59,546 nucleotides of DNA from an uncultured bacterium (GCA_947085985.1 CAMTYL010000004.1:1-59546), one strand, 5' to 3'; counted from the first letter of the stretch, positions 42,721 through 59,546 are shown. Numbers and translations are program-made. The notes: a model not told the origin generated them from the sequence alone.

Positions 42721-43170
42721 ATGGCATCTCTGATAGAGAACAAGAAAGCACGCCTTCGCTTTGAGGTACTGACTACCTATCAAGCGGGGCTTGAACTTCT
42801 GGGAACAGAGGTGAAATCAGTGCGCACCAAGCTTGGGAGCCTGGACGGCTCGCGCGTGATTGTGCGTGGTGGCGAGGCATACATTGTGGGCATGACTATT
42901 CCCCCGTTCCAGGTAGCAAACGCTCACAAGGGGTACGACCCAGAGCGCACGCGCCGATTGCTTCTAAAACGCTCGGAAATTGCTGAACTGCTGGACGCCG
43001 AGGCAAAGAAGGGATTGACAATAGTGCCACTTGAGGTGTATAATAATGGAAGATACCTGAAGGCAAGCGTTGCAATAGTGCGCGGCAAGAACAAGGCAGA
43101 CAAGCGCGAGGATATGAAACGCGCGGATGCCAAGAAAGAAGCTGCGCAACTGTTAAAACGTTCTGTATAA
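42721..43170 (+). CDS. smpB: SsrA-binding protein SmpB
   Basis: 149 aa. NKKARLRFEVL...YQAGLELLGTEVKS...GYDPERTRRLLL; basic C-terminal tail. Confidence 0.93.
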   Translation: MASLIENKKARLRFEVLTTYQAGLELLGTEVKSVRTKLGSLDGSRVIVRGGEAYIVGMTIPPFQVANAHKGYDPERTRRLLLKRSEIAELLDAEAKKGLTIVPLEVYNNGRYLKASVAIVRGKNKADKREDMKRADAKKEAAQLLKRSV

Positions 43171-43550: not shown

Positions 43551-43958
43551 GGGGGTGACCGGCTTTGACGGTCTTGTACTTTGAGAGACGTGCGACGCGG
43601 TGGAAGTATGCTGACCACCTAAAAACGTATGCAACTAAACTTGCCAAGAATTCTCTTGCAAGCGTAAAGTCTCCTTACTTCGGTAAGTCGGATTTTGCGT
43701 TCGCTTACGCGTAAAAGCTTCGCGCTTTCGCCTGAGCGACATCTTATCTATCCCGGGTTTCGTAGCGGGTAGGTAGGGTGGAATCTTCTACGGAATCGGT
43801 ATCTAGGGCCTCCCTGCCCCAGGCTTAAAAGATGGGATTGGGTGCGAGTGGTTTCGCTTTTGTTTTTACACTCACACCGACACTTCAATAGAAGCTACGC
43901 GTCGTAGACTCGCTCTTAAAGCAAGATTCGGACCGGAGTTCAACTCTCCGCACCTCCA
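43551..43958 (+). ncRNA. ssrA: tmRNA (SsrA)
   Basis: 5' GGGGGUGACCGGCUUUGACGG pairs with 3' CACCUCC-A, including the G3:U70 alanine identity pair. T arm CGGAG-UUCAACU-CUCCG. The internal tag frame ends ...GKSDFAFAYA-UAA (stop at 43712-43714). The gene sits next to smpB. The resume codon is not determined. Confidence 0.85.
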
Positions 43959-45590
43959 CATGGTTTCATGATTAGGCACGAAAGTGCCTTTTTGTGTATA
44001 TTCTTCCTGGTTTTCTAGAGGTTCTAACCAAACACCAAGAGAGCTTGCTTCAAGTAGAACCTGTACCGGTTTTTCCGTATTCATAGTGAGTATTCCCTGG
44101 TCGAGAACATGCTCATCACCTAGAGCAGCAATAATGGCTCTTCGCTCCAATACTCCGCCTTTAGCAAACTCCTCACTGGCTCGTTCAGCAAACGTCATGA
44201 GTCGTTCAGCGTCATCTATCCAGGTCTTGAATCGTTGGTCTACTGACTCAATTTCAACTTTTAATCTTCGTTCCTCTGCTTCAAGCGTTGCTCTTCGTTC
44301 CTTATATTCATCACCCTCAATCTCGCTAGCCAGTCTCATCTCAAAGAGCGTTGTTAGCTGCTGCTGTGTGGCCTTGAGTGCCCGTTCCTGCTTGTAGAGG
44401 ATAGAATCCTTATCATTGGATTCCCTTTCATATTCAGTACGGAGTTCAGCCATAGCCCACTCGTGGAATCGAGCGTCTATCTGAATTGAGGAGAGGAAAT
44501 CAGCGAACACTACTTCTAATTGCTTTTCGGTTATAGACTTCTGCTTACAATCACTCTTTATCTTCCCTGTGCAACGATAATAGGAGTATTCGTGGTAATT
44601 CCCATTCATCTGGGTCTTAGTCTTCTTTTCGCAGGTTATCCTTGCGCCACATGCACCACAGCGCATAAGTCCGGTATACGCGTGGACATGAGTGGTGCTT
44701 CTTGGCTTTCCTTTCTTTCCTAGCAGTCTTTGCACCTCATCAAATTGAGCTCGCGTAATTAAAGGCGTGTGTGTGCCTTGGTAAGTGATGATTTCGACGT
44801 CCTTATCTCCCCTCCTCACAGACCAAGTAAATTCGCCGTAGTAAAAGGAGTTGTTGAGAATGTTATAGAAGCCGTGTATGGATAGCGGCCTCCCGTTCGG
44901 ATTCCTGACTGTTTTACGCGCCCTCATGCCCCACTCCTTTACTGACAGCATATAGACCTGAAACGGCGTGTACTTGCGTGAAAGCAGAGTATCGAAAATC
45001 TTCTTTATTAGTACGGCATTGTGTTCGTCTATTTCGCAGACCTCTGGCTTACCTTTCTCCCTGAATTTGGTGTTCTTATAACCAATCGGAGCAAGGCACG
45101 GACGGAAGCCTCGCCGAAGCGACTCCATCTGTCCACGCTTTATATGCTTCTTGAGGTCGCGTGAGTACTGCGTTGAGGAACTCATTTCGACAGACCACAT
45201 GATTGTGTGGTCATCGGGGTAGAGATCTCTGTCGGTAGCCTTTATATTCTTGATGATTTCTTTCTGGAGAAAGTACTTAATCTCCCCTTCGTCAATTGAG
45301 TTGCGTGAGAGACGGTCAATTTTGAAACATAGGATTGCATTCGCATTCCCTTCCTCGATGTACCTCATCATTGCCGTAAACTCAGGTCTTTGCCGAGGCT
45401 CGCTTGCAGATACCGTCTCAGTAAACTCTTTAACGACCTTTAACCCGTACTTTGAAGCTAGCTCGTGGACTTCATTAAGCTGCGAAAGGATAGAAGGTAC
45501 GCCAACATCCTCCTCGGTCCTATTGGCCTTAATCGAGCGTCTCGCATAGATAACATATTTAAGCCCCTTATCTCTATCCTCCCTGTACAT
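43872..45590 (-). CDS. large serine recombinase (integrase)
   Basis: Resolvase catalytic domain (YVIYARRS ... FKIDRLSRN), recombinase domain, zinc ribbon (CGACGARITC ... YYRCTGKIKSDC) and coiled-coil. Start set to ATG 45590 (the track start at 45635 is TTG). The last ~30 codons overlap ssrA. Confidence 0.88.
   Translation of the reverse strand: MYREDRDKGLKYVIYARRSIKANRTEEDVGVPSILSQLNEVHELASKYGLKVVKEFTETVSASEPRQRPEFTAMMRYIEEGNANAILCFKIDRLSRNSIDEGEIKYFLQKEIIKNIKATDRDLYPDDHTIMWSVEMSSSTQYSRDLKKHIKRGQMESLRRGFRPCLAPIGYKNTKFREKGKPEVCEIDEHNAVLIKKIFDTLLSRKYTPFQVYMLSVKEWGMRARKTVRNPNGRPLSIHGFYNILNNSFYYGEFTWSVRRGDKDVEIITYQGTHTPLITRAQFDEVQRLLGKKGKPRSTTHVHAYTGLMRCGACGARITCEKKTKTQMNGNYHEYSYYRCTGKIKSDCKQKSITEKQLEVVFADFLSSIQIDARFHEWAMAELRTEYERESNDKDSILYKQERALKATQQQLTTLFEMRLASEIEGDEYKERRATLEAEERRLKVEIESVDQRFKTWIDDAERLMTFAERASEEFAKGGVLERRAIIAALGDEHVLDQGILTMNTEKPVQVLLEASSLGVWLEPLENQEEYTQKGTFVPNHETMWRCGELNSGPNLALRASLRRVASIEVSV
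43974..43993 (+). terminator. rho-independent terminator of ssrA (lies inside the recombinase ORF on the other strand)
   Basis: aggcac-gaaa-gtgcct followed by TTTTT, 16 nt after the tmRNA discriminator base. Confidence 0.7.
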
Positions 45591-45777
45591 ATGATTTTGA
45601 TGGCCAAAGCTGAGCGTAGGTCTGTCTGAATTCAAGCAATTCGTTTGCGTCCATCTTTTCGAGAGGCGTTGTGCAAATCATGATGAGCGTCTGCACCAAC
45701 TCCTCCCGCGACATGGACTCAATCTGATGAATCATGTCCGCGACTACATAGTCTCTAAGTTCCTCGATGCTATTCAT
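45574..45777 (-). CDS. small hypothetical protein (island)
   Basis: 67-aa ORF overlapping neighbours by a few nt, in an operon-like array upstream of the recombinase. Confidence 0.4.
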   Translation of the reverse strand: MNSIEELRDYVVADMIHQIESMSREELVQTLIMICTTPLEKMDANELLEFRQTYAQLWPSKSYVQGG

Positions 45778-45958
45778 GGTTGAAGTTCTTAGTGAATCTC
45801 ACAACGAGCTTGCCGTACTGGTCTCGGACAAATGCCCTCTTACCCTTCGGGAAGCCTGATTCTTGTAAGATTCTGGCGACAAATTGCTGTTCTGCTTTCT
45901 TGGTCAGGTGATTAGCTTCTTTTCTAATAATCTTTCTCTCTGGGAATCTACTTGACAT
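45770..45958 (-). CDS. small basic hypothetical protein (island)
   Basis: 62-aa ORF overlapping the next gene by 8 nt. Confidence 0.4.
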   Translation of the reverse strand: MSSRFPERKIIRKEANHLTKKAEQQFVARILQESGFPKGKRAFVRDQYGKLVVRFTKNFNHE

Positions 45959-46207
45959 GCTGGATATTTCTATCGTATTAGGCGCGTTCCAAATGTACAG
46001 GTAGTTCTATATAGAAGTGTTCACATCACATTTAGTTTTCTGGTGGGTAAAGTCATTTCCAGTAATTCTTTAAAAAATTGGAAAGCTTATTTTTTGTTAT
46101 TATTTTTAATAATTAATCTATCTATTGTGTTGCTCACCAGGAGTACGCTTTTTGTAGCTTCTGTATCCTTGCGATAACACTTGTGTACCCCTGGAATACC
46201 AGCTGCG

Positions 46208-46861
46208 TTAATCCACTGCGAAACGGACTTGTCCTCCCTGCTTCTTCTTTTGAAGGTAGAGAATGAGTTTTGGTAGCTTCGTCTCCATTTCGGAAGGACA
46301 AACGATTACGGGCGCGTATTGCTCTCCATTCGTCGTGAGTATCGTCTGGATGTAGTACTCGAGAGTTTCTGGTCCGTAAGCTGTGAGCATCCGTTCGATA
46401 GCGGCTCGCTCCTTCCTCCTTCTCAGATACCCGTCTGTAAGCCCTGGTGCTATCGGCTTGAATAGCTCGATTAGATGAACGACTATCGGGGAAGGATTTG
46501 AATCCTCAACCTCCTCGTCATGAGTCGTCTCCTTTAATGCGAGGTGTATCACGGTAGTCTTGTACTTCTCTCTCACAGTCTTGATGAAGCCAAGTTCCTC
46601 AAGTTTATTTAGGGAGCGAGATACCTGTGCCCTGCTTACACCAGAACCGTTCTGCTTCTTTCCTATGCCATTCGTAAACTGAGAGAGGCTTATGGCATCA
46701 CTAGTCTTTCCCCAACCCAGCGTGCGTCTTAGAATGAAATCTAAGATCTTCTGGTCGGCACCTGAAAAAAGATGCCAATAATTTTCAAGCTCAATAGGGT
46801 ACGTGAAAAAATCCTTCTTGTACCGTGCTCGAAAGCCAGGAAAATTAGATGACGTATCCAT
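46208..46861 (-). CDS. replication-initiator-like winged-HTH protein (phage Rep-O-like N-terminal domain)
   Basis: KILDFILRRTLGWGK...ISLSQF...GVSRAQVSRSLNKLEELGFI matches the pattern of phage replication protein O-type N-terminal domains. Motif-level only. Confidence 0.45.
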   Translation of the reverse strand: MDTSSNFPGFRARYKKDFFTYPIELENYWHLFSGADQKILDFILRRTLGWGKTSDAISLSQFTNGIGKKQNGSGVSRAQVSRSLNKLEELGFIKTVREKYKTTVIHLALKETTHDEEVEDSNPSPIVVHLIELFKPIAPGLTDGYLRRRKERAAIERMLTAYGPETLEYYIQTILTTNGEQYAPVIVCPSEMETKLPKLILYLQKKKQGGQVRFAVD

Positions 46862-47114
46862 AAGGCATTGATTCCTGTCCTGTCATTACTCCAAGGAGGC
46901 AACGAGCGATTTTGACTTCATAGTACTTTTCAGAAACCATCTCCTGAATGATGTCTAGATATTCCTTGATAGTCTCGTAATCCTCGTATCTCACTCGTTC
47001 TATCGCGTCTAGCGAGTAAACGTACATTGCGTCGTTACGCTCACTATCCATAACCAGTTCGTTGATGAACTCTAGTTGGCTCAATAGATTGTCTCTTGCA
47101 TCATCTTTACTCAT
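46845..47114 (-). CDS. small acidic hypothetical protein (island)
   Basis: 89-aa ORF overlapping the downstream gene by 17 nt. Confidence 0.4.
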   Translation of the reverse strand: MSKDDARDNLLSQLEFINELVMDSERNDAMYVYSLDAIERVRYEDYETIKEYLDIIQEMVSEKYYEVKIARCLLGVMTGQESMPYGYVI

Positions 47115-47120
47115 GTTGCG

Positions 47121-47306
47121 TTAATTTTTTACTAATTGTCTTGGGCTACCGTAGACACTTATGTAGAGGTTGAGCAGGTAGCGAGCCGCGTGTTCTAGCG
47201 CCTCCCCTTCTAGCAATTCCCCGTACACTTGCTGATAAATCGCCTGGAACTCCTTGAGACTTTCTTCCCTCCAGCACAAGGCTGGAGGCTCGCGCGTGTG
47301 AGGCAT
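47121..47306 (-). CDS. small hypothetical protein (island)
   Basis: 61-aa ORF in the same array. Confidence 0.35.
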   Translation of the reverse strand: MPHTREPPALCWREESLKEFQAIYQQVYGELLEGEALEHAARYLLNLYISVYGSPRQLVKN

Positions 47307-47324
47307 ATAATCTTTTGAACCCTC

Positions 47325-47624
47325 TTACTTGAGAGGTGCTTCTTCTTCCTCAACAGCGGCGAATGCGACGCTTTCGTACAGGTCTTTTAGAAGCTGTATG
47401 TCAGTGAGAAGTGCGTAAGCGATGTCTGATTTGCCGTCTTTTGCTGTAGGTGACAAATCTTCATCACCTGAGAGGATGTCAATGCTATCTATTGCATGTG
47501 CCAGAGCCTCCCATGTCTGAGTGGTGTGCTGGATAAAAGCCAGATGAGTCTCGTATCCGTGCGCGACTGCGTTTACTACTTCTTCCTCAACCGCCTTCTT
47601 TGTTTCCCCTTTCTTCTTGCTCAT
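47325..47624 (-). CDS. small acidic hypothetical protein (island)
   Basis: 99-aa ORF, first gene after a 10-bp-arm palindrome (47647-47680). Confidence 0.4.
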   Translation of the reverse strand: MSKKKGETKKAVEEEVVNAVAHGYETHLAFIQHTTQTWEALAHAIDSIDILSGDEDLSPTAKDGKSDIAYALLTDIQLLKDLYESVAFAAVEEEEAPLK

Positions 47625-47780
47625 AAATCATTTGAGTTAATCGAACTTAATAAGTCATCGCGGCCGCTTTGACTTATTAACCGTAGCCGAAGAATGCTGG
47701 ACAAACCAATCTACGTGTTTTATAAAATTAACAACCTTGTTTATATATCCGTAAGAAACACCAGGTAATTTACACGCAAA

Positions 47781-47805
47781 ATAAGGCCGCTTTTGACGGC
47801 CTTAT
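47781..47805 (-). terminator. rho-independent terminator
   Basis: ataaggccg-cttttga-cggccttat followed on the minus strand by TTTG; downstream of gene 47838-48590. Confidence 0.65.
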
Positions 47806-47837
47806 AAGAAGTGTTGTCCACTCCCCTTCAAATCGGG

Positions 47838-48590
47838 CTAACCTTTTTTCTTGAGTAAAGTCTTTTTCTTCAAAAGATTTATGGGGTTGCTTATCGCGGC
47901 ATAATCTTTGAGGAGTTGTTCCAAGACGAGAGATACTTCGCTCAGTTCTTTCACGCCACGCGGACTCGAATCAACAAAAGTCCTGACCCAACCTGCTTTA
48001 CCTTTTTCGAGAAAGGCCTTCTTAAAGTTCTGGCTTAGTTCTTCATTTGACCAAACAAGTAGAACCTTGCCTTTAGTTCCGCTATTAGTGTGCACCCGCC
48101 GTACATCGGTTGACGCGATTGAGTTATCAGGAAACCAAACCTTCTTGCCTTTGGCTTTTACAATAAAAATAAGAACGGGATGCGTCTTTACCGTTCCTGA
48201 AAGAATCCGCATTAAGTCTGTGCGAGTTTTAACGGAGAGATAATCAACTCGATATCCTATCTTTTCAGCAGACTCTCTCAGACGTTTTGCCTTATCGGAG
48301 TATTCCTCTATCGCGGCAATTGTCATGAAGCTACGACGACGCACATCTTCGTAATCGCCACCGAGCCTCCTCATACCCTTTAGCTCTCCTTTATTCCAGA
48401 GCCTAATGAATTCTTCAACGTTCTTTCTATAGATTACGTATCGCTTACTTCGACCTTCGCCTCGATACTTGGGTTGAAAGATGTCGCTATGCATATCCAC
48501 CTGCTTTCTCACGGAAGCGATATTCTTCCAATGAAGCAAGCCCGAGTCGGCAAGCTCGTTAAGTGTGAAGAAATCCTTGTCGGCAGCCAT
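47838..48590 (-). CDS. excisionase-like HTH N-terminal domain protein with unknown C-terminal domain
   Basis: N-terminus FFTLNELADSG...GEGRSKRYVIYRKNVEEFIRLWNKGELKG is paralogous to both halves of ORF 58321-58869 and fits the MerR/Xis-type HTH_17 pattern. Confidence 0.5.
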   Translation of the reverse strand: MAADKDFFTLNELADSGLLHWKNIASVRKQVDMHSDIFQPKYRGEGRSKRYVIYRKNVEEFIRLWNKGELKGMRRLGGDYEDVRRRSFMTIAAIEEYSDKAKRLRESAEKIGYRVDYLSVKTRTDLMRILSGTVKTHPVLIFIVKAKGKKVWFPDNSIASTDVRRVHTNSGTKGKVLLVWSNEELSQNFKKAFLEKGKAGWVRTFVDSSPRGVKELSEVSLVLEQLLKDYAAISNPINLLKKKTLLKKKG

Positions 48591-48718
48591 GCCTCCATTC
48601 TATCGCCTCTACCCAGAAAGCACCTCGTTTATGGGTACTTTCATCACGGCCATATGAAACCATACCTATACCCTTAGCTGTGCCTTAGAGAGGAACGCAG
48701 AGCCTCACGCGGGCATTA

Positions 48719-49186
48719 TTATTTGGTTGATGAGGAGTCTTTGGTCTGGATAGTCCCTCCAAGCAGTTCCTTGAAGCTGACATCACATTTCTTCATAGCT
48801 GGATTGAGGGTCATCATCACTTTAAATGGTGAAGTCTGTCCGGCAAGGATGGGGTTGTACTCAGTGAGAGCAGAATCGGAATTTATGAACTGACCATCCG
48901 AGGTGTATGTCGTTCCGACTGCCGTGACATTCTTGAGGGATTCACTACTGATGTTTTTAACCTGACCTGAAATCGTAAAGAAGCCGTACTCCGTGGTGCA
49001 CTTGTAGCTAAGGAGTTCGAGCTGGTCTGCTTTTGCGACTGCGGGAGCACCGGCTGTTGAGGAACCTTTGCCTGATAGAGAATCCGAGATGCTCCCTACT
49101 ATGACAAGGCAGAAAATAATGAGCACGGTAGCGAGAAGAATTTTCCCGATACGGGGTTTTGGTTTTGGAGTGTCTCCGTTATTCAT
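48719..49186 (-). CDS. membrane-anchored extracytoplasmic protein, unknown function
   Basis: 155 aa, N-terminal TM helix (ILLATVLIIFCLVIVGSI) then a beta-rich domain. Confidence 0.5.
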   Translation of the reverse strand: MNNGDTPKPKPRIGKILLATVLIIFCLVIVGSISDSLSGKGSSTAGAPAVAKADQLELLSYKCTTEYGFFTISGQVKNISSESLKNVTAVGTTYTSDGQFINSDSALTEYNPILAGQTSPFKVMMTLNPAMKKCDVSFKELLGGTIQTKDSSSTK

Positions 49187-49193
49187 GGAATTC

Positions 49194-49327
49194 GTGTCTA
49201 GCGATTTTTATAATTCCGGTGGGTAGCACAAAACCCGCCACCAGGAGAGGCCGAAGCCTCCTATAGAAGTTTCCCTCTATAACGCTAGACACGCCCTGAT
49301 GACGGGTTTTCTGGTGTCTAGCGATTT
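49194..49327. repeat. Three copies of a GTGTCTAGCG(ATTT) motif (two direct, one inverted) in a GC-richer intergenic region
   Basis: gtgtctagcgattt at 49194-49207 and 49314-49327; inverted core cgctagacac at 49283-49292; further local hairpins between them. Confidence 0.9.
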
Positions 49328-49404
49328 GCAGCCATGCCAGAGCCGAGGCTACTGGTTTAGGCCGACTGTTATTCAGTTGTCGAACACATAGATATGGTAA
49401 TACC

Positions 49405-50616
49405 TTACAGGGCCTCTGTAAAACTTACGTTACTCGTTATGCTCTTTTTAATAATCTGATTGATTCTAGGATCATACATAAACTCATCAATTCTGTTTGA
49501 AATAATTAGGTCAATTACTTCCTCCATTAATTTAATATCAACCTTAAACCATTCACGAGGTCTATATGATATTCCCTTTCTATCTAGAAGTTCGACATCT
49601 AGCTTTACGGTTGAAAAGAAATCATGAATTTTTTGTTCAAGGCCATGGGTCTGAATATTTAGACATCTGAAAGTGGAAACTACATCAACGTCATCAAATA
49701 AATAAGTTGCTTCGTTTTTCGCATTTTTAATTCTCTCTGAAACAAGTCCTGACGTATAGCCTATCTTGTACAAATCCTTAATGCTTTGGACACTTGCGTT
49801 GCGACTCTTTAAGACATATATGTATCCATTTAACACATCGGACTCCTCTGTCGTGTCTTTTGAGGTGGCGGTATTTTCAATCTTTCCAATTGAATAACCG
49901 TCGAGTTGCATTGCTTTATCCAAAGAACGAAATAGCATTTCCGATTGGGTGCCATTGTCAAATATGCACAAAGTACGGCCATCAAATCGATCTCTTTTCC
50001 CGCTTACATATTCGTATTTATCAACATCACCATTGATACTTTCTAAATAGAGCAGGACACCATTCAAGACATAGAAGCTTCCTTCCCTCAGGTCTGCTGA
50101 GTCGTATTTTGTTAACCTTCTCTTTTTTGACTCTAATTCCTCGTGCAGAACATTAAACATTTCTTTATACCGAGAAAATTCTTTGTTAACCTTACGCCTT
50201 GAGAGGAAGTCGGGCTTGATTCTGTCACTGGGCCTTACATGTCTCAATTTAAAAATATCTGAGTCTGCAGTTTTACTAAGCAAACCTAGCGGATCATTCG
50301 AAATGATATCTTCTACTGTCACTTCCTTTACTTCACCACCCTTGAGCAGACCATTAAAGTCATATTTCATTAGTTCCCTGACTTTTTTGGGATTTTTTCT
50401 GATTGCATGAAGTCGGGAGGCAAGTTTGAATTCAATAATATTTGAGATATCCGATTGAGGTTCTCTTTTGTGTTCTTCAAAATACTCTTGTATTTCTTCA
50501 AATGAAGATACCAAGATGCTGTCCTCATGCGATACAGGTCGTTTAGTAGACGTATTCTTGAGCAATCCGAGAGGGTCATTCTTTAGAAGTTCAAGAACGT
50601 CAGACCTCTTGCTCAT
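49405..50616 (-). CDS. T5orf172 / GIY-YIG-like nuclease-domain protein
   Basis: C-terminal domain GYIYVLKS...LYKIGYTSG...R...E..IH..F...REWF fits the T5orf172 (MUG113, GIY-YIG-like) pattern. The N-terminus has two NDPLGLL repeats. ATGA overlap with the helicase stop. Confidence 0.7.
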   Translation of the reverse strand: MSKRSDVLELLKNDPLGLLKNTSTKRPVSHEDSILVSSFEEIQEYFEEHKREPQSDISNIIEFKLASRLHAIRKNPKKVRELMKYDFNGLLKGGEVKEVTVEDIISNDPLGLLSKTADSDIFKLRHVRPSDRIKPDFLSRRKVNKEFSRYKEMFNVLHEELESKKRRLTKYDSADLREGSFYVLNGVLLYLESINGDVDKYEYVSGKRDRFDGRTLCIFDNGTQSEMLFRSLDKAMQLDGYSIGKIENTATSKDTTEESDVLNGYIYVLKSRNASVQSIKDLYKIGYTSGLVSERIKNAKNEATYLFDDVDVVSTFRCLNIQTHGLEQKIHDFFSTVKLDVELLDRKGISYRPREWFKVDIKLMEEVIDLIISNRIDEFMYDPRINQIIKKSITSNVSFTEAL

Positions 50617-52556
50617 ATGTTTTGCTCACTATTAATTTGTCGTAGATAGACCAGTGCCTCTGCCATTCTCCTCTCAAGTGGGTCCAGGGCATCAAAACTA
50701 GGTTCCTTACCTTTAATGAGGAAGAAATCCTGTATCTTAGGCCACAAGATAATAGCTTCATCATCTGTCATCTGAATTTTAAGCGCCTGAATACACTGCT
50801 GTACTGCCTTAAAGACCCTTGGACTCAATTGTTTAGACATAACCTCGAAAGCATTCTGAAACGGATTTATCGAGTAAATCAAATCCATGTTCAGTTCAAG
50901 AACATTCACTAGCCTGTTGGCAAAGACTATAAATTTATCGTTACCCTGCTCGACAATATTACTTGCTCTAACCACGGAGCTTACTGCAACGTAATCACCC
51001 AACTCTTTAAGTTCATCTTTGCTTAAGTCCGGGTAAATCTCTTGGATTACTTTCGGAATGAGAGCTCTGTTCAATACGTCTGGGTCTACCACCCCAGGGA
51101 ATGAACTCTGTATCTCAGGTGATTGAAGAATCTTTGCCTTCAAATCAATAAGGTCGTTATCAATGATTTCTCTTAAACGTGCAGAGCTTGGTTCTTTGAA
51201 CCCTTTTATGAAAATATCAACACCATTCGTATTGCCTTGGTCAGATTCCTTAGATCTAAAACTAAATTTAGGTGCCATTACTTCCTCCATTAGCAATGAT
51301 GCCGCTATTGCTTTAAGCATGTTATTTACACTGTCAGCAATATCCTCACTTTCTGCGTCTGGTTCAGCAATAAGGTTCGTGAATTGAGCATGGCTTTTAT
51401 TCTCGCTATCACGTGTGCAACGTCCAATGATTTGAATAATCTCGGTTAACGAACCACGGTACCCAATTGTCAGAGTGTTCTCACAAAATGGCCAGTCGAA
51501 ACCTTCCTTAGCCATTCCAAGAGCAATTACCATATCGATGTCATCTACCGTCTTCACATTGCGGAGATATGCCATAACCTTATCCCTCTCTAAGGGATTA
51601 TCGTTAACCAAGTCCGCTATTTTGATAGTCCTTCCGTCCGCACTTTTTAAAGAGATTATTCCGTGCTCATCAGTAGAAACATACGTGCCAATATGGTCCA
51701 AAATCGAGTCTACTTCGAGCATTTTCTCTTTAGTCGATTCAGACGCATTCACGCTAGGAATATGAATTATTGTCTTCTTTTTGAGGTCAATTATCTTAGG
51801 AATTGCGTCTAAGTATTTTCCTTTATAGAAATGGAAACCAATCCCTAGCGATTTAAGGTACTCGTATCCATTAAGCTGCTCGTAATAGTTGTACGTTACT
51901 TTTGTAAATTTCTGCTCATCCTTTGGTGACAAAACAGCAACTGAGTCACCGCGAAAATATGACCCAGTCATCGCCAGGATGTTAGCGTTGGTATTCTGCA
52001 TGATATTGCTAAGCAACTGCCCCAACTTACTTTCTATGTCCGTTGAGACATGGTGAAACTCATCAATTGCAACAAGGCAGTTGTTGAATGCCTCGAAGCC
52101 AACTTGATCGAAGGCAAATCTCAAGGTTGAATGAGTGCAGAGAATAATTTTTGCATCTGACTCCATGAACCTTTTAAAGGCAACGGTCTTCCTCTCTTCC
52201 CCGCCAGGTGAGCAAAGATCATATTGAGGATCGATTACCCAATCCGAGTGAAATCCGTCCTGGGATAAGTTTGTGGACGCAAAAGATTTGGCAATTGACC
52301 TTTCAGGGACTGCAACGATAATTTTTTTAACTAAATTGTGTTTGAGTTTCTCAAGGGCAACATACATTAGGGCTCTAGACTTGCCTGAACCTGGAGGTGC
52401 TTTTAAAAGCAAATACTTGGAATCAAATTTTTGGTATACCCTTCTTTGCATTTCACGCATCCCTTTACTGTCAGCAAGTATGCTGCTTCCATCGTGTTCG
52501 TATTCGACATTAATTAGATTTTCCATTTTGGGTAGCGGTATTTTCGTATAAGCCAA
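50613..52556 (-). CDS. SF2 DEAD/DEAH-box helicase (ResIII-like)
   Basis: Walker A KAPPGSGKS, motif II AIDEFHH, motif III MTGSYFRGD, motif VI QIIGRCTRD; about 200-aa helical C-terminal extension. Confidence 0.8.
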   Translation of the reverse strand: MAYTKIPLPKMENLINVEYEHDGSSILADSKGMREMQRRVYQKFDSKYLLLKAPPGSGKSRALMYVALEKLKHNLVKKIIVAVPERSIAKSFASTNLSQDGFHSDWVIDPQYDLCSPGGEERKTVAFKRFMESDAKIILCTHSTLRFAFDQVGFEAFNNCLVAIDEFHHVSTDIESKLGQLLSNIMQNTNANILAMTGSYFRGDSVAVLSPKDEQKFTKVTYNYYEQLNGYEYLKSLGIGFHFYKGKYLDAIPKIIDLKKKTIIHIPSVNASESTKEKMLEVDSILDHIGTYVSTDEHGIISLKSADGRTIKIADLVNDNPLERDKVMAYLRNVKTVDDIDMVIALGMAKEGFDWPFCENTLTIGYRGSLTEIIQIIGRCTRDSENKSHAQFTNLIAEPDAESEDIADSVNNMLKAIAASLLMEEVMAPKFSFRSKESDQGNTNGVDIFIKGFKEPSSARLREIIDNDLIDLKAKILQSPEIQSSFPGVVDPDVLNRALIPKVIQEIYPDLSKDELKELGDYVAVSSVVRASNIVEQGNDKFIVFANRLVNVLELNMDLIYSINPFQNAFEVMSKQLSPRVFKAVQQCIQALKIQMTDDEAIILWPKIQDFFLIKGKEPSFDALDPLERRMAEALVYLRQINSEQNI

Positions 52557-55098
52557 ACAGGTGCTTTATCCTCTCCATGTCAGATACGAAGGCTTCATCT
52601 TTATAACATGAATCTATCTCTTTATCAAGACTATCATGCAAGATTTTAAGTCTTTCAGGGAGAGCACTGTAAAGACTTCCTAGGCTTATGTCGCTGAAAT
52701 TTTCCCTCTCATTTATTATGTCACCAACTAACGAGGTTATGTGATGCTTCTTTTCTGAAGTTATTTCTGGAAATGGAAATGTGTTATACCCGAGTTGGCT
52801 TGAGTATCGAAGCCTTGTTTCTAGATTTCCGCACACGGTACGAATCCAGACCATATGCATCTGTGATGACACTAGTCCGAAAATCCAAGGTTCGCAATCG
52901 TATACAGCAAAAGCAAGGTTCGACACGATTGTGTCGCTACCTACGAAGCCGATTGGAATGTACTTCCTCTTTTCAGACGAGACTGATGGCACTACCAGGG
53001 TCTGAGAGTGTGTTTCTCTGAACTCTCTAAATTGATACGGACGTTCCGCAAGTCTACGTGCACCAGCATCTCTTTTAGATAACCTGAATTCCCTTACTCT
53101 ATCAACCCTTTCTTTTACTGCCTGAATTGAAGTGGCTTCTTCTACCTCATCTGAGTCTATCCAAAGACACCACCGCTCAATACTGTTTATAAATTCGTCC
53201 GAGCCGACTAGTTTTTTCAGAAACTTAGAAGCTTTAGGCGAATCTGTCGTAAGCTTGACCATTTCTTCCTTACTAAGAAGAAGATTTTGGTCATCGTATG
53301 GCATGTTGCCTTTCTGCATGACAGGCAATTCTTTAGATACAGGTTTCCTCTCCTCTTTAACTATTGTTCTCGTTGAATTAATTAGATATGGCCCAATACT
53401 ATCGGTGTATATGACTTTATTATCTGCATACAAATATTTAGTCTCTCGTTGGTTGTTTGAGTCAGTTAGCGCGACAATGATTACCGTCACGCCCGTAGAA
53501 GGTGTTGCGTCACCCCTCCATTTAAATGAACGATAAGCGAAAGAAATGTCACAATTGAGAGCATAAATTTTACTCCACACAAACGAAACCTGTGTACCCT
53601 GACAAATTGAATTTGTAATCACCAGGGCACATTCAGACTTCGACCCCTTAATATACTCAGCCGATTTGTATAGCCAGCTAGCACTATAGTCTGTGTCTCC
53701 CAAACGCTCAGAATCAAACACCGATTGCATTTTCTTCTTCTCTTGAGATGAAATCTTTTTCGCACCTTTAAATTCAGGACTTCCAATGATATAGACATTG
53801 TCATTGTTTGGACAGGCATCCTTCCAATTTGAAAGAAGCTGGTCCCCCTTTTTAATATTTACGTTGTTGTAGGTACTAAGTAAGTCACCTTCTTCAAAGA
53901 ATTCATTGCTGTGCAAATACTGCAAATACGAAACCCAGAGCGTTAGGTGAGAGAATTTAAATGACAAATCGTTATCTACCAAGCCGATAAAGTTATTAAG
54001 ATTAACTTCCCTGGAAGGATTTTGCCCTTTTAGCTTATTGATAAGTGTCAGCAGATCAACAATGCTTGTAAATGAAGATGACAAGAAACAGCCAGGGCCA
54101 TTTGTTGGGTCAAAGAAAACCTTGTTAAGCAGTTCCTCCTTTATTTTTTGAAGTCTCTCTGCATCATCTTTATTTATAGAAATTAAATCTTCGTACTTAT
54201 TTATAAATAGCGGATTCAATAATTTAGCTATATTGTTGTGAGAAATAAAACGCCCGTAAATACCTGGATTGCTGTCCTTCTGCGTCAGCTTATAGGTAAG
54301 AGTACCCAGTACTTCTGGGTCAATATTAATTAACTCATAACATAAGATCTTTGCGGAGAGTTCAAAACTGATTAGATTTATATGCGGTAGTGTATTTTTG
54401 GTGTGCCCAAATCTTCCAAAGAAGGGCAACTTGGCAAAGGATGCATCATTCGTAATATTTTCTAATGTTGCATCAAAAATACCTTTGATTTGGAAATTGT
54501 AGTCTAATTCTTGTGAAGCAAATATCCATTGAAAGTATTTCTCTATCTCTTTGTTCTTGGTGATTGATTTACTGAAACTTAAGTAAACAAGCGACAATGC
54601 GTAGTCGGTAATCTCCTCTCCCAAAGAATCATTTTTCTTATCGAGACTTAACTGATTAAATAAACTTGCCATTAACTCCACGAAATCCAGAGTCGTTGTC
54701 AGGTCTCTTTCATCTGTCTTGCCGTATATCAACGGATTAAAAAAGCTTACATGTTTGTAAACTTCATTTGGACTAAATTCAATTAATTCATCCGTAACTA
54801 AATCCTTGCACATAACAACGTTGGAATTTAATAAAACAACAATTCTCGGAGCCTCTGTTAAACCAGCTTCAACAGAAGCAAAATCATCTTTACTCACTAT
54901 GCTTTTATCGTAGATAAAAACGGCTCTTTTGTAGATATAGATTGGTTTTAAAAAGGACTGTTTCTTGGCATTCTCAATTGATCGTTTAATTGTCGAATCT
55001 GAGATTTGTAGTGCCGAAAGTAGCTCCTCAATATATTGGGAAACTTCAATGAAACGAATTCCTTGTAATGAGTTAGTTATTTCGTTAACAGTCCTCAT
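52510..55098 (-). CDS. MmeI-family (type IIL R-M enzyme-like) protein with non-canonical catalytic motifs
   Basis: Colinear by eye with MmeI as I recall it: RIVVLLNSNVVMCKDL.. / SAM motif I FFDPTNGPGCFL / motif IV position YIIGSPEFKG / ITNSICQGTQVSFVW / FINSIERWCLWID / RKYIPIGFV...FGLVSSQMHMVWIR...RLRYSSQLGYNTFPFP. Confidence 0.75.
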   Translation of the reverse strand: MRTVNEITNSLQGIRFIEVSQYIEELLSALQISDSTIKRSIENAKKQSFLKPIYIYKRAVFIYDKSIVSKDDFASVEAGLTEAPRIVVLLNSNVVMCKDLVTDELIEFSPNEVYKHVSFFNPLIYGKTDERDLTTTLDFVELMASLFNQLSLDKKNDSLGEEITDYALSLVYLSFSKSITKNKEIEKYFQWIFASQELDYNFQIKGIFDATLENITNDASFAKLPFFGRFGHTKNTLPHINLISFELSAKILCYELINIDPEVLGTLTYKLTQKDSNPGIYGRFISHNNIAKLLNPLFINKYEDLISINKDDAERLQKIKEELLNKVFFDPTNGPGCFLSSSFTSIVDLLTLINKLKGQNPSREVNLNNFIGLVDNDLSFKFSHLTLWVSYLQYLHSNEFFEEGDLLSTYNNVNIKKGDQLLSNWKDACPNNDNVYIIGSPEFKGAKKISSQEKKKMQSVFDSERLGDTDYSASWLYKSAEYIKGSKSECALVITNSICQGTQVSFVWSKIYALNCDISFAYRSFKWRGDATPSTGVTVIIVALTDSNNQRETKYLYADNKVIYTDSIGPYLINSTRTIVKEERKPVSKELPVMQKGNMPYDDQNLLLSKEEMVKLTTDSPKASKFLKKLVGSDEFINSIERWCLWIDSDEVEEATSIQAVKERVDRVREFRLSKRDAGARRLAERPYQFREFRETHSQTLVVPSVSSEKRKYIPIGFVGSDTIVSNLAFAVYDCEPWIFGLVSSQMHMVWIRTVCGNLETRLRYSSQLGYNTFPFPEITSEKKHHITSLVGDIINERENFSDISLGSLYSALPERLKILHDSLDKEIDSCYKDEAFVSDMERIKHLFGLYENTATQNGKSN

Positions 55099-55997
55099 AC
55101 TGTATCGAAATTCTTATAAATAAGTCTTGCGACGTATTCTGCCATCTTTACCGGAACAGCATTTCCTATCAACTGTTCTACCTGTGACCTTGTGCCTTCA
55201 AATATAAATTCCTTTGGGAAAGTCTGAATGTAACTACGCTCCTTACTTGTTAGTGCACGTACTTTACTTAGATCTGTTGTTTTATCTGCACTATGCACAG
55301 CGTACGTTTTTGGAATGGGTCTATTGACCCCTCTTATTGTTGAACTTGGTTCATCAATTGAGAATATTGCTCTGCGACTGTAGCTCCTTGGGTGCATATA
55401 GTAAAACTCCGTTTTCAGGCTTTTGCCGAAGTAGTCTCTAACTGTCATATGCTTCTTGGATAGATTCTTATGCAAAATATCTTCCAAGAAATTGTCCTCA
55501 CTACCCAATTTCCCAATCACAAAAAAGCGTTTGCGGGATTGAGGTACGCCCATAAGACTAGCATCAAAGACACCTTTAGTGATTCCATACCCTGCTTTTT
55601 TAAAATTACCTATCGCTTTGGCTAAAACGGGAGATTTTTCGATGTTGTAAACATTCTCCATTACAAACCACTCAGGACGGAGGCTTGAAACTATATTGCT
55701 AAATACCAATGTCAGGTTAGCTCTTTTCCCTTTAAAGTTCCTACCTCCAGCAATTGAGAAATCTTGGCATGGAGGTCCCCCAATAATAATGTCTGGCTTG
55801 AATTTACTAAGTTCTTCAATCACAGATGGATCAAATAGATCCTTTTGAAAAACAGGGTGGTCGAAGTTTTTCTTATAGACTTCGACAGCGGGAGCCCAAT
55901 TGTCATATGCTGACACCACATCAAAACCAGCATTTTGGAAGCCTAGTGACATTCCTCCACAGCCAGCAAACAAATCTACTAATTTAATTTTTTTCAT
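55095..55997 (-). CDS. DNA (cytosine-5)-methyltransferase, copy 2
   Basis: Motif I DLFAGCGGMSLGF, motif IV GGPPCQDFS, motif VI ENV, motif VIII QSRKRFFVIG, motif X GNAVPV. ATGA overlap with the downstream gene. Confidence 0.9.
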   Translation of the reverse strand: MKKIKLVDLFAGCGGMSLGFQNAGFDVVSAYDNWAPAVEVYKKNFDHPVFQKDLFDPSVIEELSKFKPDIIIGGPPCQDFSIAGGRNFKGKRANLTLVFSNIVSSLRPEWFVMENVYNIEKSPVLAKAIGNFKKAGYGITKGVFDASLMGVPQSRKRFFVIGKLGSEDNFLEDILHKNLSKKHMTVRDYFGKSLKTEFYYMHPRSYSRRAIFSIDEPSSTIRGVNRPIPKTYAVHSADKTTDLSKVRALTSKERSYIQTFPKEFIFEGTRSQVEQLIGNAVPVKMAEYVARLIYKNFDTV

Positions 55998-56913
55998 GCC
56001 TTATATATTCCATTAGTGCTGCTGAAATATATTCAGCCAACTTCACAGGAACTGCGTTCCCAATAAGCTGGTTAAGGGTAGTCTTAGGTCCTTCAAAAAC
56101 GAAATCTTCTGGGAAGGTTTGAATTAAGCTTCGTTCCTTATAGGTAAGTGTTCGAACAGACGGATTCAGTGGTATCGGGTCAGTAGGATGACCAGGATAG
56201 CCACTTGGAACCGGCCTATCGACTCCTCGAATAGTCATAGAGGGCTCATGGATACTGAAAATACCTCTGCGACTGTAGGATCGTGGCACTCTGAAATAAT
56301 ACTCAAAGCCTAATGAGTTACCAAAGTAGTCAAAAATCGTCGTTTGCTTTTCACTCTGACCTTTGACCAACCTATCTAATAGAAAGTCATCCTTGCCACC
56401 AAGCTCACCTATAACTACGAAACGCTTTCTTATTTGAGGTGCTCCGCAACGACTAGCATCTAAGACTAAGTGTGTGAGTCCGTATCCTAATTTACTAAAC
56501 TTCTTCATAATTTTTGGGAAGACTTCACTCTTCTGAATTCGCGGGACATTCTCCATTACAAAATACTTCGGCTTTATATCTGCAATAATTTTAGAGAACG
56601 AAATAGTCAATTCAGCTCTTCCTAGATTTTCATCACGATGTCCGGCACTAGAGAAATCTTGGCATGGAGGTCCCCCAATAATAATGTCTGGTTTGAAGGA
56701 TTTAATATCTTCCAAGTCTGAAGTGTCACCCAAATCCTTTTTGAAAATCGGATGCTTAAAGTTCTTCTTGTAAACCTCTATAGCCGGGTCCCAATTATCA
56801 AAAGCGGCAACAACATTAAAGCCTGAGTTCTCAAATCCTAGTGACAGACCTCCACAACCAGAGAAAAGATCCACGACAGTTGGAGCTACTTTTTTTGATT
56901 TGTTAGTTTTCAT
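55984..56913 (-). CDS. DNA (cytosine-5)-methyltransferase, copy 1
   Basis: Motif I DLFSGCGGLSLGF, motif IV GGPPCQDFS, motif VI ENV, motif VIII QIRKRFVVIG, motif X GNAVPV. Paralog of copy 2. Confidence 0.9.
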   Translation of the reverse strand: MKTNKSKKVAPTVVDLFSGCGGLSLGFENSGFNVVAAFDNWDPAIEVYKKNFKHPIFKKDLGDTSDLEDIKSFKPDIIIGGPPCQDFSSAGHRDENLGRAELTISFSKIIADIKPKYFVMENVPRIQKSEVFPKIMKKFSKLGYGLTHLVLDASRCGAPQIRKRFVVIGELGGKDDFLLDRLVKGQSEKQTTIFDYFGNSLGFEYYFRVPRSYSRRGIFSIHEPSMTIRGVDRPVPSGYPGHPTDPIPLNPSVRTLTYKERSLIQTFPEDFVFEGPKTTLNQLIGNAVPVKLAEYISAALMEYIRHEKN

Positions 56914-56916
56914 ATA

Positions 56917-57093
56917 TTAGTTCCCTCCCGTGTTAGAGCTAGCCTTGATAAAAGTCTCTAAATCCTTTTCTGATACCCTCCAATGCCCTACCTTGGATGC
57001 TTTTAGTTTCTTACTTTTGATATGCCGAAGGATAGTGCGGTCACACACCTTAAGCCTGTTCGCAGTCTCTTTTATGGTTAAAAGTGTATCCAT
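56917..57093 (-). CDS. small HTH DNA-binding protein (excisionase/MerR-type, 58 aa), first gene of the operon; not in the ORF track
   Basis: Hand translation of the minus strand: MDTLLTIKETANRLKVCDRTILRHIKSKKLKASKVGHWRVSEKDLETFIKASSNTGGN. Classic HTH_17 pattern. The stop lies 3 nt before the MTase start. Confidence 0.7.
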   Translation of the reverse strand: MDTLLTIKETANRLKVCDRTILRHIKSKKLKASKVGHWRVSEKDLETFIKASSNTGGN

Positions 57094-57180
57094 GTACAGA
57101 ATTGTCCTGTTTTGTACTATAGAGTATAGGGAAGTACAGATATATACCTAAATATACCGACATGTCCTGTATTGTCATAT
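57094..57180 (-). promoter_or_regulatory. Putative promoter/operator region of the HTH-MTase-MmeI-like-helicase operon
   Basis: Dense short direct repeats directly upstream of the HTH gene: tgtcctgt(t/a)ttgt at 57103-57117 and 57163-57177, gtacaga at 57094-57100 and 57134-57140, atatacc twice (57142-57158). Confidence 0.45.
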
Positions 57181-57280
57181 TACAATGACGGCTCGTAAAA
57201 TCCTGAGGCTATCCCCAGCTTGTGCAAGATTAGGTGGCCGTGACAGAACATCCTGGAAAGAGTTGTCTGGCAAAGAGAAC

Positions 57281-58210
57281 CTATGCACTCTTAAGGTATT
57301 TTGGAAAAACCGAACGAAACTTCTCTACGACACCAAGAAGCCATCCGAAGTAGGACTCCCAGTTCTCTTGGTTATTGAAGTCACCCTCATAAGAAACCTT
57401 GATACGGCTTGCTTTCTTGCCTGGCAACTCCATCCATTCCAGCCTCTCACTCAGTGCTGCTTCTATCTCGTCCTTGTGTGTAAGGATTTCAGCATAAAGT
57501 TCTTTGTTGTCGGGGATGTGTAATTCAACTCCAAACGTATTGTCTTTGGAATTGATAGTCATGGAGATATACGCCTCGCTGGTGCCAATACTCATATTGT
57601 TCCAGTGCTGAGGATTGCTCTTATGAAAGCGCAGGTTGCTATTGTTCTTCTTAGCGTATTCCTTGAGTGCGTTCCAGAAAGCCAATTGTTTTAGCTTAGT
57701 CTCGGTAAGTTCCCCACTTCCAACGGATTCCTTAACGGCTTTTGCCCAATCGTTTGGCTTTGAGATTATTTCGAACTTCGGAGCGAAGTCAGAATCCCCA
57801 ATCTGCCACAACTCAATCTTCAACAAATAAAACTCAATGTTTTCGTCAGTATGCTCATTAAGCCAGTCAATTGCACGACGATGCTCCTCTCTTACATCTT
57901 TCACCACCCAAATTATGGCCTCAGCGTCATATCCAGACGCGTAAGTAATTACCTTTCCAAGATGGTCATGGTTGGTAATCTCCAACTGATTCTCGATGAT
58001 AATCTTCTTTCCAGTGCCGTCTTCCTCAGCAAGGATATCGACGTTGAAATTCCCCACCGAGGCTTCGGTTTGAATTAGTTTTATCTCAAGACCAATCTCA
58101 TCTCCCAAAAGAGACAGATTCTCCTCTTGGGCAAGCCACTGTGTAAAATCATGGGCTTCGTGCCGCCAACCTTCGCGCAGCTCGACTCTTTTAAGCTTAC
58201 CTAGACTCAT
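57281..58210 (-). CDS. PD-(D/E)XK (NucS-like) N-terminal domain + DUF4268-like protein
   Basis: GNFNVDILAED...KIIIENQLEITNHDHLGKVITYASG...IIWVV.....HRRAIDWLN fits the family usually annotated DUF4268. Start set to ATG 58210 (the track start is TTG). Confidence 0.6.
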   Translation of the reverse strand: MSLGKLKRVELREGWRHEAHDFTQWLAQEENLSLLGDEIGLEIKLIQTEASVGNFNVDILAEEDGTGKKIIIENQLEITNHDHLGKVITYASGYDAEAIIWVVKDVREEHRRAIDWLNEHTDENIEFYLLKIELWQIGDSDFAPKFEIISKPNDWAKAVKESVGSGELTETKLKQLAFWNALKEYAKKNNSNLRFHKSNPQHWNNMSIGTSEAYISMTINSKDNTFGVELHIPDNKELYAEILTHKDEIEAALSERLEWMELPGKKASRIKVSYEGDFNNQENWESYFGWLLGVVEKFRSVFPKYLKSA

Positions 58211-58320
58211 TACCAAGAATAATAGCTCCCGACGGGAGAAACTCAAAAGTCCGAGATTCTCTTAACAGCTTAGACCCTCCTAGGGTTCCTGGGTCTCAAC
58301 TTTTTCGCTTCCTTATTAAA

Positions 58321-59540: not shown

Positions 59541-59546
59541 GAACCT

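Follow-up and report, generated by a model that had tools for sequence, protein, structure and literature searches.

The locus described here raises the question of how the gene of a large serine recombinase (LSR) can end inside a tmRNA gene carried on the opposite strand, and of what such an arrangement means for both genes. It lies in a 59,546-nt stretch of DNA from an uncultured bacterium (GCA_947085985.1, CAMTYL010000004.1:1-59546), referred to as the window, and the host of the element concerned is a Patescibacteria-type bacterium. A first-pass annotation of this stretch had proposed that an island was inserted at the tmRNA gene, ssrA, leaving two alternatives: either the element lies just 3' of ssrA and the C-terminal tail of the recombinase is read-through into the host gene, or the element supplies a replacement 3' end for the tmRNA. 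Comparison with related loci supports the first alternative and retains, from the second, a replacement trailer and terminator, but no element-supplied tmRNA sequence beyond at most 5 nt. On this evidence, window positions 43955-59137 very probably correspond to an integrated element that was placed by its own LSR in the last five bases of the tmRNA (TCCAC). Both junctions, the 5-bp core, a 5-bp offset between attachment (att) sites, the preservation of the tmRNA, the replacement of its terminator, the alternative C-terminal tails of the recombinase and the mobility of the element all emerge from the alignment of loci, and hence from sequence comparison.

The ssrA locus and the recombinase reading into it

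The target is a complete, host-encoded tmRNA gene (43551-43961, plus strand), located 380 nt downstream of the host gene smpB (42721-43170, plus strand; Pfam SmpB PF01668, E 9e-42). Its initial recognition next to smpB is sustained by a covariance-model search, in which the gene matches Rfam RF00023 over the full model (1-374) with 94.5 bits against a gathering score of 47 (E 1.4e-35). The features on which that recognition was based can also be read in the sequence: the acceptor stem pairs 5' GGGGGUG with 3' CACCUCC, G3:U70 included, and the tag ORF (open reading frame; 43643-43714) runs from GCC at 43643 to GCG and the TAA stop at 43712-43714, encoding AKNSLASVKSPYFGKSDFAFAYA with the end AFAYA-TAA. 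This tag is close to the one reported by ARAGORN for the relative L012 (AKNTLASVKSPYFGTKDFAFAYA). The discriminator A of the mature 3' end is at 43958, and CCA is incompletely encoded. ARAGORN itself does not call the tmRNA at 43551-43961 in the window, and it also misses the gene in L004, L005, L007, L008, L014 and L267; the Rfam scores in these loci range from 65 to 105 bits.

The sequence that follows the tmRNA is of a different origin. G+C content drops from ~52% to 34-46% between 44000 and the window end, matching the AT-richer composition remarked on in the first-pass annotation, and the tmRNA trailer (43960-43995, plus strand) is derived from the element. It comprises a conserved inner arm, ATGGTTTCAT, and a replacement intrinsic terminator, AGGCAC-GAAA-GTGCCT plus TTTTTGT (43974-43995), with a stem-loop at 43974-43989 and a T run, which in the terminator scan is the sole good intrinsic terminator downstream of ssrA. 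The whole trailer lies within the coding sequence of the recombinase gene (int), the ORF of which does run across the terminator hairpin, as had been claimed, reading it as codons K-G-T-F-V-P. In relatives, the two strands of the stem compensate for each other (AGGCAC/GTGCCT, GGACCC/GGGTCC, GGCCCC/GGGGCC), and in the closest clade these compensatory changes alter the encoded peptide (KGTFVP versus KDPFGS), indicating that the hairpin is under selection as a structure.

The int ORF extends over 43872-45635 on the minus strand, with the called start (M) at 45590 and an alternative upstream TTG start at 45635, and in the integrated state it encodes a protein of 572 aa (P0001; 43872-45590). Its stop codon (43872-43874) falls 87 nt inside the mature tmRNA, exactly as first described, and 90 nt inside the Rfam span. 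Three Pfam domains are present and are all retained in the integrated-state ORF: Resolvase (PF00239, E 5.6e-13, residues 28-172), Recombinase (PF07508) and the zinc ribbon Zn_ribbon_recom (PF13408). Within the YARRS motif, R17 is invariant and S19 is at least 90% conserved among 35 homologues, and the protein matches a PHROG integrase family with E 2e-60. The AlphaFold2 model of a relative in attP form, P0049, shows long helices (365-457) after the zinc ribbon, with a predicted local distance difference test (pLDDT) score of ~80-90 in the core and a mean of 80. On these sequence-testable grounds Int is a large serine integrase, and it presumably catalyses the insertion of its own element.

The overlap with the target gene is not peculiar to the window. 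Scanning 185,579 species-representative genomes with the 35-homologue alignment yielded 398 confirmed loci, 80 of which were compared. The ORF ends 10-109 nt inside an opposite-strand tRNA or tmRNA gene (tDNA) called by ARAGORN in 54 of these 80 loci, the called target being a tmRNA in 12 of them and tRNA-His, Asn, Ser, Ala, Lys, Asp, Trp, Arg, Ile, Glu or SeC in others. Rfam identifies a tmRNA in seven more, five of them missed by ARAGORN among the 80 (L004, L005, L007, L008 and L014) plus L251 and L261. Furthermore, the T-loop occurs in the same int codon phase in 46 of the 47 loci with a T-arm near the stop, the exception being a spurious match. Recurrence in at least 54 of 80 loci, and in a single codon phase, argues that the overlap is not due to chance. 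To judge from these loci, the int-into-tDNA layout is standard in a large family of recombinases directed at tmRNA and many tRNA genes. The hosts of this family are mostly Patescibacteria, with representatives also in the Omnitrophota, Melainabacteria, Margulisiibacteriota, Elusimicrobiota, Ignavibacteria and others.

Junctions, crossover core and extent of the island

The comparison with genomes lacking the island that was called for at first pass reveals that empty sites do exist. Integrase-free sites read CCTCCAC followed by AAAAT and continue into their own terminator; in one of them (L084) the last 66 nt of the tmRNA are identical to those of the window, where the sequence differs right after CCTCCAC. 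At this point the window, L004, L088 and L092 all read ATGGTTTCAT and the hairpin. A chimera of assembly or binning, with a host contig joined to foreign DNA at the tmRNA end, might be envisaged here, since conserved tmRNA 3' ends could be mis-joined and assemblies do break at this position (L267, L265). The same junction and hairpin, however, recur in independent assemblies from different studies (L004, L088, L092), and in the window both island ends lie on one contig with a coherent geometry of left (attL) and right (attR) attachment sites, so that the likelihood of a chimera is negligible.

It could also be argued that the recombinase is a domesticated and fixed neighbour of ssrA, such as an invertase or resolvase, and that the AT-rich block beside it is ordinary strain-specific DNA. 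No phage structural or conjugation genes were found among the ORFs scanned in the 15 kb of the island, in agreement with this view, and several genomes show decay in place: in L088, L092, L100, L091 and L104, int 3' remnants of 45-120 codons and an element-type terminator stand beside ssrA, the rest of the element being absent. The current tmRNA terminator of those genomes is hence of mobile-element origin. A fixed neighbour, however, does not account for the empty sites, for the bounded islands with G+C shifts and matching arms found in many genomes, for the contigs in attP form that exist among relatives, or for the presence of the same Int on different tmRNA backgrounds. Relatives carry the same int/att module with different cargo, and an Int 93% identical to that of the window, with a near-identical arm, is found with different cargo in a tandem array (L267). 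A fixed neighbour is thus very unlikely, and the initial interpretation of the DNA beside the recombinase as mobile cargo holds.

The left junction maps to the ssrA 3' end, as originally placed, with the attL core TCCAC at 43955-43959 (plus strand) made up of tmRNA U70-C71-C72-A73 and the next C. Finding the right junction had been thought to require an extension of the contig, but this junction is inside the window, with the attR core TCCAC at 59133-59137 (plus strand). G+C profiles of related loci place island boundaries less than 10 kb from int, and on the int-sense strand these boundaries present a terminator, then GTGGA(G), 13-14 nt and GTTAGAACC. The attR of the window was located with the composite motif GTGGA-N(6-24)-GTTAGAACC adjoining a terminator. 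The window has a single occurrence of this motif (59137, minus strand), against ~0.07 expected by chance from base frequencies. In tmRNA orientation, this region reads GAGGTTCTAACCTGACGTAACCAGT, TCCAC (59133-59137) and TAATTTAATTG, followed by a 14-bp perfect hairpin at 59148-59180. The first segment is the attP-type left arm (59108-59132, minus strand), which features a GTTC 22 nt from the core. Beyond the core lies the displaced former tmRNA trailer with its terminator, TAATTTAATTG (59138-59180, plus strand; 14-bp perfect inverted repeat, 59148-59161/59167-59180), which is similar to the trailers at the occupant-free sites L094, L104, L093 and L103. The far arm of the window shares 78% identity over 90 nt with the arm of L005 (Int 83%) and differs very little from that of L267 (Int 93%), which argues that the island is bounded core to core, from 43955 to 59137, for a length of 15,178 bp.

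When attL is aligned with attR in the window and in ten related loci with Int proteins 38-83% identical, TCCAC is the sole block common to both sites, although up to 3 more bases are shared in some loci. The true repeat is therefore 5 bp long, consistent with the prior expectation that a serine integrase would leave no long direct repeat, and this explains why searches for a displaced ssrA fragment came back empty. No repeat of the ssrA 3' end exceeding 5 nt was found in the window (25-mer with at most 3 mismatches; repeats of at least 14 nt), and scans with k-mers from the tmRNA 3' end (21-mer and 16-mer against genome contigs, 19-mer against metagenome contigs) recovered empty or occupied sites and chance matches, with no attR among the matches listed. 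L226, a candidate from these scans, turned out to be unrelated. The right sides of attR in related loci correspond to native tmRNA trailers present at empty sites elsewhere, as illustrated by the L005 attR trailer, which matches L142 and L099.

The position of the crossover is indicated by the left half-sites. GTTC starts 17 nt before the core in attB, where it belongs to the T-loop, and 22 nt before it in the far arm of attP, in 10 of 10 pairs. In LSRs, attP has the motif for the zinc-ribbon domain 5 bp farther out than attB does (Rutherford et al., 2013; PMC3783163), and the +5 bp shift of GTTC hence places the crossover within TCCAC, with the exact crossover dinucleotide presumably somewhere inside these five bases. 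With a crossover at this point, the tmRNA remains host-encoded and the element swaps only its trailer and terminator. The reconstructed attP reads GAGGTTCTAACCTGACGTAACCAGT-TCCAC-ATGGTTTCATGATTAGGCAC, and the reconstructed attB reads GGAGTTCAACTCTCCGCACC-TCCAC-TAATTTAATTGTTGGAAAACC. The left half-site of attB consists of the T-loop, T-stem and acceptor 3' strand of the tmRNA, and the T-arm GTTC is a putative contact for the zinc-ribbon domain. The universal conservation of the T-arm would explain the use of tmRNA or many tRNA genes by relatives of this integrase. A further motif, TTAGAACCTC, is present in three copies in the window versus 0.11 expected, all on the minus strand and at the island ends. 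Copy 1 (44018-44027) encodes the conserved L-E-P of Int at 59-68 nt from the core, copy 2 is contained in the attP-type left arm, and copy 3 (58985-58994) is 139-148 nt inside the attR core and is kept in the L005 arm.

If the crossover took place instead inside ssrA, for example in the T-loop, the element would bring the last ~20 nt of the tmRNA and the displaced 3' fragment would be found at the far end. The L025 locus lends itself to such a reading: ~10.5 kb from attL, 20 nt of the tmRNA (from the T-loop centre to the 3' end) recur without mismatch and are followed by a native terminator, and a 13-nt degenerate copy is present as well. However, a canonical GTGGA...GTTAGAACC arm lies at 1320 in L025, between these fragments and the island, and the 20-nt and 13-nt fragments are hence better read as scars of older elements. 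A crossover in the T-loop is likewise at odds with the absence from the window of any ssrA 3' copy longer than 5 nt, with the ten attL/attR pairs sharing only TCCAC, and with the related sequences P0040 and P0031, which split exactly after GTGGA. The idea, which arose from the L025 20-nt repeat, was abandoned when attR sites with a short core and a conserved arm came to light, and it is now considered quite improbable next to a crossover within TCCAC.

The ssrA 3' end is a heavy-traffic insertion site. Tandem or scarred arrays are seen in L251/L255, L025, L267 and in the downstream flank of the window on L001. On L001, a second attR-like site is found beyond the window end and ~1.4 kb past the first, at ~500-600 (position 555; window coordinate ~60,540), where an arm with GTTAGAACC and a TCCAC core are followed by a terminator resembling that of L135. 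The stretch between the two attR-like sites (window 59181-59546 onward) encodes 229-aa and 133-aa ORFs, lacks an integrase and bears its own copy of the int tail found at the far end of the element (WKWISKVRTSLLENRASHCLRVVDSW); it is probably an older integrase-less remnant or a tandem satellite element. Contigs encoding the window region, sought in order to extend beyond it, were limited to Logan contigs of at most 4.4 kb. In L267, a second LSR (17464-19134, 11632-11700), unrelated to the first (23% identity), likewise extends into the 3' end of ssrA, using a different frame (V-E-V, not W-R-x). Its element was inserted beside ssrA after the first one, with the attL of the first element as target.

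Other traces of rearrangement are present at these sites. The short island of L251 (4438-8652), from the P0007 population, holds the element end (GGATTCAC...GTTAAAACC) in triplicate, along with a 3' fragment of int; the attR unit is duplicated in L255, at 6642 and 8372; and L251 and L252 differ by 2 nt beside the core (GTGGAAC versus GTGGAGG). The integrase-free sites L085, L106, L128, L130, L131, L141 and L126 carry an inverted copy of the tmRNA 3' end downstream of the native terminator, interrupted by a hairpin with stems that vary by locus yet remain self-complementary (GTGGAGGTGCAG, hairpin, GTGGAGAGTTGAA).

An integrase gene that spans its own attachment site

The crossover core occupies codons 544-546 of the int ORF, which is 570 aa long in the circle and 572 aa long in the integrated state, and attP is thus located inside int. 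The integrated tail, residues 545-572 (WRCGELNSGPNLALRASLRRVASIEVSV), is encoded by 43875-43958, so that the last 28 codons are antisense ssrA. The coding segment for the circle-form C-terminus, WNWLRQVRTSLLESRASYFLSVVDSW (59056-59136, minus strand), is severed from int in the integrated state and preceded by a TAG stop. Joining the island ends in silico restores a 570-aa protein that ends with this 26-aa peptide, and circle junctions rebuilt in ten other loci yield clearly homologous tails. The earlier prediction that excision would alter both the Int C-terminus and the tmRNA terminator is therefore corroborated by the junctions rebuilt in 11 loci and by attP-form proteins that occur naturally among public sequences (P0040, P0049, P0059 and P0072). 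P0040 and P0031 illustrate the two states: they are 83% identical, and their DNA is identical up to GTGGA, after which one enters an attP arm and the other the tmRNA.

The two kinds of tail differ in their conservation. In 90%-identity clusters, one Int (at least 90% identical) is joined to four different tmRNA-derived tails; the inner Int copy of the L267 tandem array ends in MWR; and integrated-state tails range from 2 to ~45 residues. In the 13 element arms compared, GTT-AGA-ACC (V-R-T, GTTAGAACC) is invariant as DNA, constituting a putative recognition motif, and the next ~17 codons keep S-[LI]-[LI]-E-x-R-A-x-[HY]-F-L-x-V-V-D-x-W with synonymous variation, which points to constraint at the protein level. 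The integrated tails are thus arbitrary and the circle tail is conserved. The first-pass annotation had asked whether recombinase orthologs end before the overlapping tail; none of the family members examined has a stop codon before the core, and a C-terminal V/I-R-T-x-I/L motif is retained by those distant homologues, a minority, whose genes are not next to a tDNA.

These patterns can be arranged into a tentative mechanism. In the excised circle, the int ORF would run on into the far end of the element and finish with WNWLRQVRTSLLESRASYFLSVVDSW; after integration, residues 545-572 consist of meaningless antisense ssrA up to the first stop. Our preferred guess is that full-length Int would be competent for integration and that its activity or directionality would shift once insertion has removed the peptide, and convergent transcription of ssrA into the int 3' end may lower int expression in the integrated state. 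That the circle-state peptide is functional, with a role in directionality or commitment, is put forward as a possibility to be held with caution. A similar caution applies to a built-in switch, whereby full-length Int would integrate and tail-less Int would be excision-prone or inert, replacing or supplementing a directionality factor.

Both proposals must be set against a neutral origin, to which we assign a substantial probability, somewhat short of even. Under this alternative, the ORF crosses attP as a by-product of a compact int-attP module, neither tail is functional and the enzyme behaves alike in both states. Such a by-product would account for integrated tails that are whatever the antisense tDNA yields, over 2 to ~45 residues, for a tail region that is predicted to be unstructured, and for the V-R-T part of the circle tail (GTTAGAACC), which is constrained as DNA. 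It does not readily explain why the 17 codons beyond the att arm keep their amino acids through synonymous differences when the Int proteins are only 38-60% identical, why distant homologues away from tDNA maintain V/I-R-T-x-I/L, or why no member examined has acquired a stop before the core.

Several observations weigh against an LSR-placed island with a meaningful exchange of tails. The residues of P0049 that include the tail (509-573) have pLDDT below 50 in the AlphaFold2 model, and structural support for a role of the tail is absent; the model was aimed at docking of the tail on the coiled coil, and a low-pLDDT tail speaks neither for nor against function. The conserved peptide could be partly constrained as DNA, through its overlap with the att arm and the repeated motifs. 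No directionality factor was recognised among the small ORFs of the island in Pfam and PHROG scans, and a by-eye search for dyad symmetry between int-side half-sites and left arms gave nothing convincing. Furthermore, no empty attB or circle junction was recovered for the source strain, and the nearest empty site (L084) belongs to another genome and has a trailer unlike that of the window attR. Lastly, the second attR-like site on L001 implies that the presumed host flank to the right of attR is not certainly native.

Cargo of the element and relation to known systems

Directly upstream of int and overlapping it, two small ORFs of 67 and 62 aa (45574-45958, minus strand) are candidate regulator or directionality-factor genes. 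Neither has a Pfam or PHROG match; small ORFs of ~60-76 aa lie at the same position in L251, L261 and L265, as compared by position and size only. They are followed by a gene for a replication initiator O-like protein (46208-46861, minus strand; Pfam Phage_rep_O, E 1e-7; PHROG replication initiation O-like), which is also present near int in L261, L265 and L267. The remaining annotated genes, all on the minus strand and assigned with Pfam and PADLOC, encode a T5orf172 protein (49405-50616), a DEAD/ResIII helicase (50613-52556), an MmeI-type IIG restriction-modification enzyme (52510-55098; PADLOC E 1e-164), two C5 cytosine methylases (55095-55997 and 55984-56913), an HTH_17 protein (~56917-57093) and a DUF4268/PDC-S11 candidate defence protein (57281-58246). 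The adjacent methylases are paralogous and explain a 234-nt direct repeat (55746-55979/56641-56874; 73% identical). In relatives, the cargo includes type I restriction-modification, an AAA_11 helicase with TerB, Fic, HEPN/AbiU2 and DUF2326.

Among the island ORFs scanned with Pfam and PHROGs, some small ORFs remaining unannotated, no virion (capsid, terminase, portal, tail) or conjugation genes were detected, and none of the ORFs scanned contains a tyrosine Phage_integrase domain. In IMG/VR, full-length relatives of Int are at most 31% identical, and two short N-terminal fragments reach 41-42%. The gene content suggests a replicative, integrative defence island rather than a prophage. The element also encodes a LOOT RNA (RF03000; 49246-49363, minus strand; Rfam 73.1 bits). 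Rfam scans of 15 related loci detect this RNA in 7: within the mapped islands of L008 (6695-6816), L015 (7285-7404), L016 (7345-7463), L017 (7328-7438) and L025 (5647-5762), upstream of int in L021 (1156-1277), and as two copies in L267 (6888-7003 and 12424-12543), one each in the related and the unrelated LSR element. The LOOT RNA thus looks like a standard component of this class of ssrA serine-integrase elements.

Elsewhere in the window, a group I intron (RF00028, 53.3 bits; 16885-17102) interrupts the anticodon loop of a tRNA-like gene (~16836-17113, minus strand) that is not called by ARAGORN and has flanks showing an acceptor and the T-arm CCCAGTTCGATTCTGGG. The first kilobase (1-1000) has a G+C content of 63.5%, compared to 42% in the next kilobase and ~50% elsewhere.

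The integrase shares with the phage-type LSRs (Listeria A118/LI integrase, Bxb1, phiC31) a three-domain architecture with a long coiled coil, as well as short att cores without a long direct repeat and the 5-bp motif shift (PMC3783163). The known targets of phage-type LSRs are protein-coding genes or intergenic sites, whereas the present family is directed to the very 3' terminus of tmRNA and tRNA genes. It differs also in having the attP core inside the int ORF, so that the C-terminus is not the same in the excised and integrated states, and in the repetition of TTAGAACCTC around attP, which is without a described counterpart.

Choice of target brings the family close to the tyrosine-integrase islands at ssrA and tRNA genes (Williams, 2002, 2003; Islander), which insert at the same tDNA 3' end, preserve tDNA function, keep int beside the intact tDNA and convergent on it, and pile up at the site as tandem arrays and scars. 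Their recombinases, however, are unrelated to the present LSR, and the duplication here of only 5 bp, with no tDNA fragment, means that the Islander signature is absent. Of the features that define tDNA islands, the locus displays the target, with a core at tmRNA positions 70-74 and an intact tmRNA, but neither a tyrosine integrase nor a duplicated tDNA fragment. Serine integrases were not known to use tRNA genes (Islander, 2015), and a 2022 survey of thousands of LSRs leaves tRNA and tmRNA targets unmentioned. The tycheposons of Prochlorococcus resemble the window element as cargo-carrying, self-replicating integrative elements at tRNA and tmRNA genes, but they rely overwhelmingly on tyrosine recombinases and reside in another host phylum. 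A preprint reports an LSR for 27 of 937 tycheposons, and the passages of its main text on serine recombinases and tmRNA give no att geometry or ORF across attP for that subset (10.1101/2020.12.28.424599).

The location of attP within the int frame, the tRNA-type target and the alteration of int upon integration recall the 'suicidal' SSV-type integrases of archaeal viruses and plasmids (PMC8371274). In that group, the gene of a tyrosine recombinase is broken into two inactive pieces. The present enzyme belongs to the serine family and keeps all its catalytic and DNA-binding domains, the exchange being confined to the final ~26 residues. SSV-type integrases have archaeal hosts, whereas the present family is found in Patescibacteria and other bacteria, and integrases that disrupt their own gene were called exclusively archaeal in a 2021 review (PMC8371274). 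In the literature on serine integrases at tRNA or tmRNA genes, or with attP within int, for which our coverage is incomplete, no description of the present family was found, nor any publication dealing with such elements in Patescibacteria. Elements of this type may already be listed, unremarked, in large island databases.

Other systems in which the position of attP relative to a gene changes its product or expression between states, as proposed here, include the mycobacteriophages BPs and Brujita and the sib retroregulation of lambda. In the integration-dependent immunity of BPs and Brujita, which encode tyrosine integrases, it is the repressor gene and not int that spans attP, and sib affects mRNA stability rather than protein sequence. 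Integration at a tRNA-Ser gene by a serine recombinase takes place in the phiRSM filamentous phages of Ralstonia. The phiRSM enzyme, however, is a small resolvase-like protein without Recombinase and zinc-ribbon domains, its att sites share longer identity, and its ORF is not known to cross attP.

A tDNA-targeting LSR contradicts the working rule that only tyrosine integrases target tRNA and tmRNA genes, and it provides a bacterial, serine-family counterpart to the archaeal placement of attP inside int, in a milder and possibly regulatory form that exchanges a conserved C-terminal peptide. Island finders that depend on a tyrosine integrase or on duplicated tDNA will overlook such elements, and gene callers will report false C-terminal extensions of Int that are in fact antisense tDNA. 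The orphan LOOT RNA becomes tied to a defined class of mobile elements, and the target of the integrase, the T-arm and 3' end of a tmRNA or tRNA gene, is available in essentially every bacterium; these enzymes could serve as landing-pad tools, including in Patescibacteria, which lack genetics. If correct, the combination of a state switch with universal T-arm recognition would constitute a class of tDNA-specific serine integrases not recognised before, with members in the Patescibacteria and several other uncultivated phyla.

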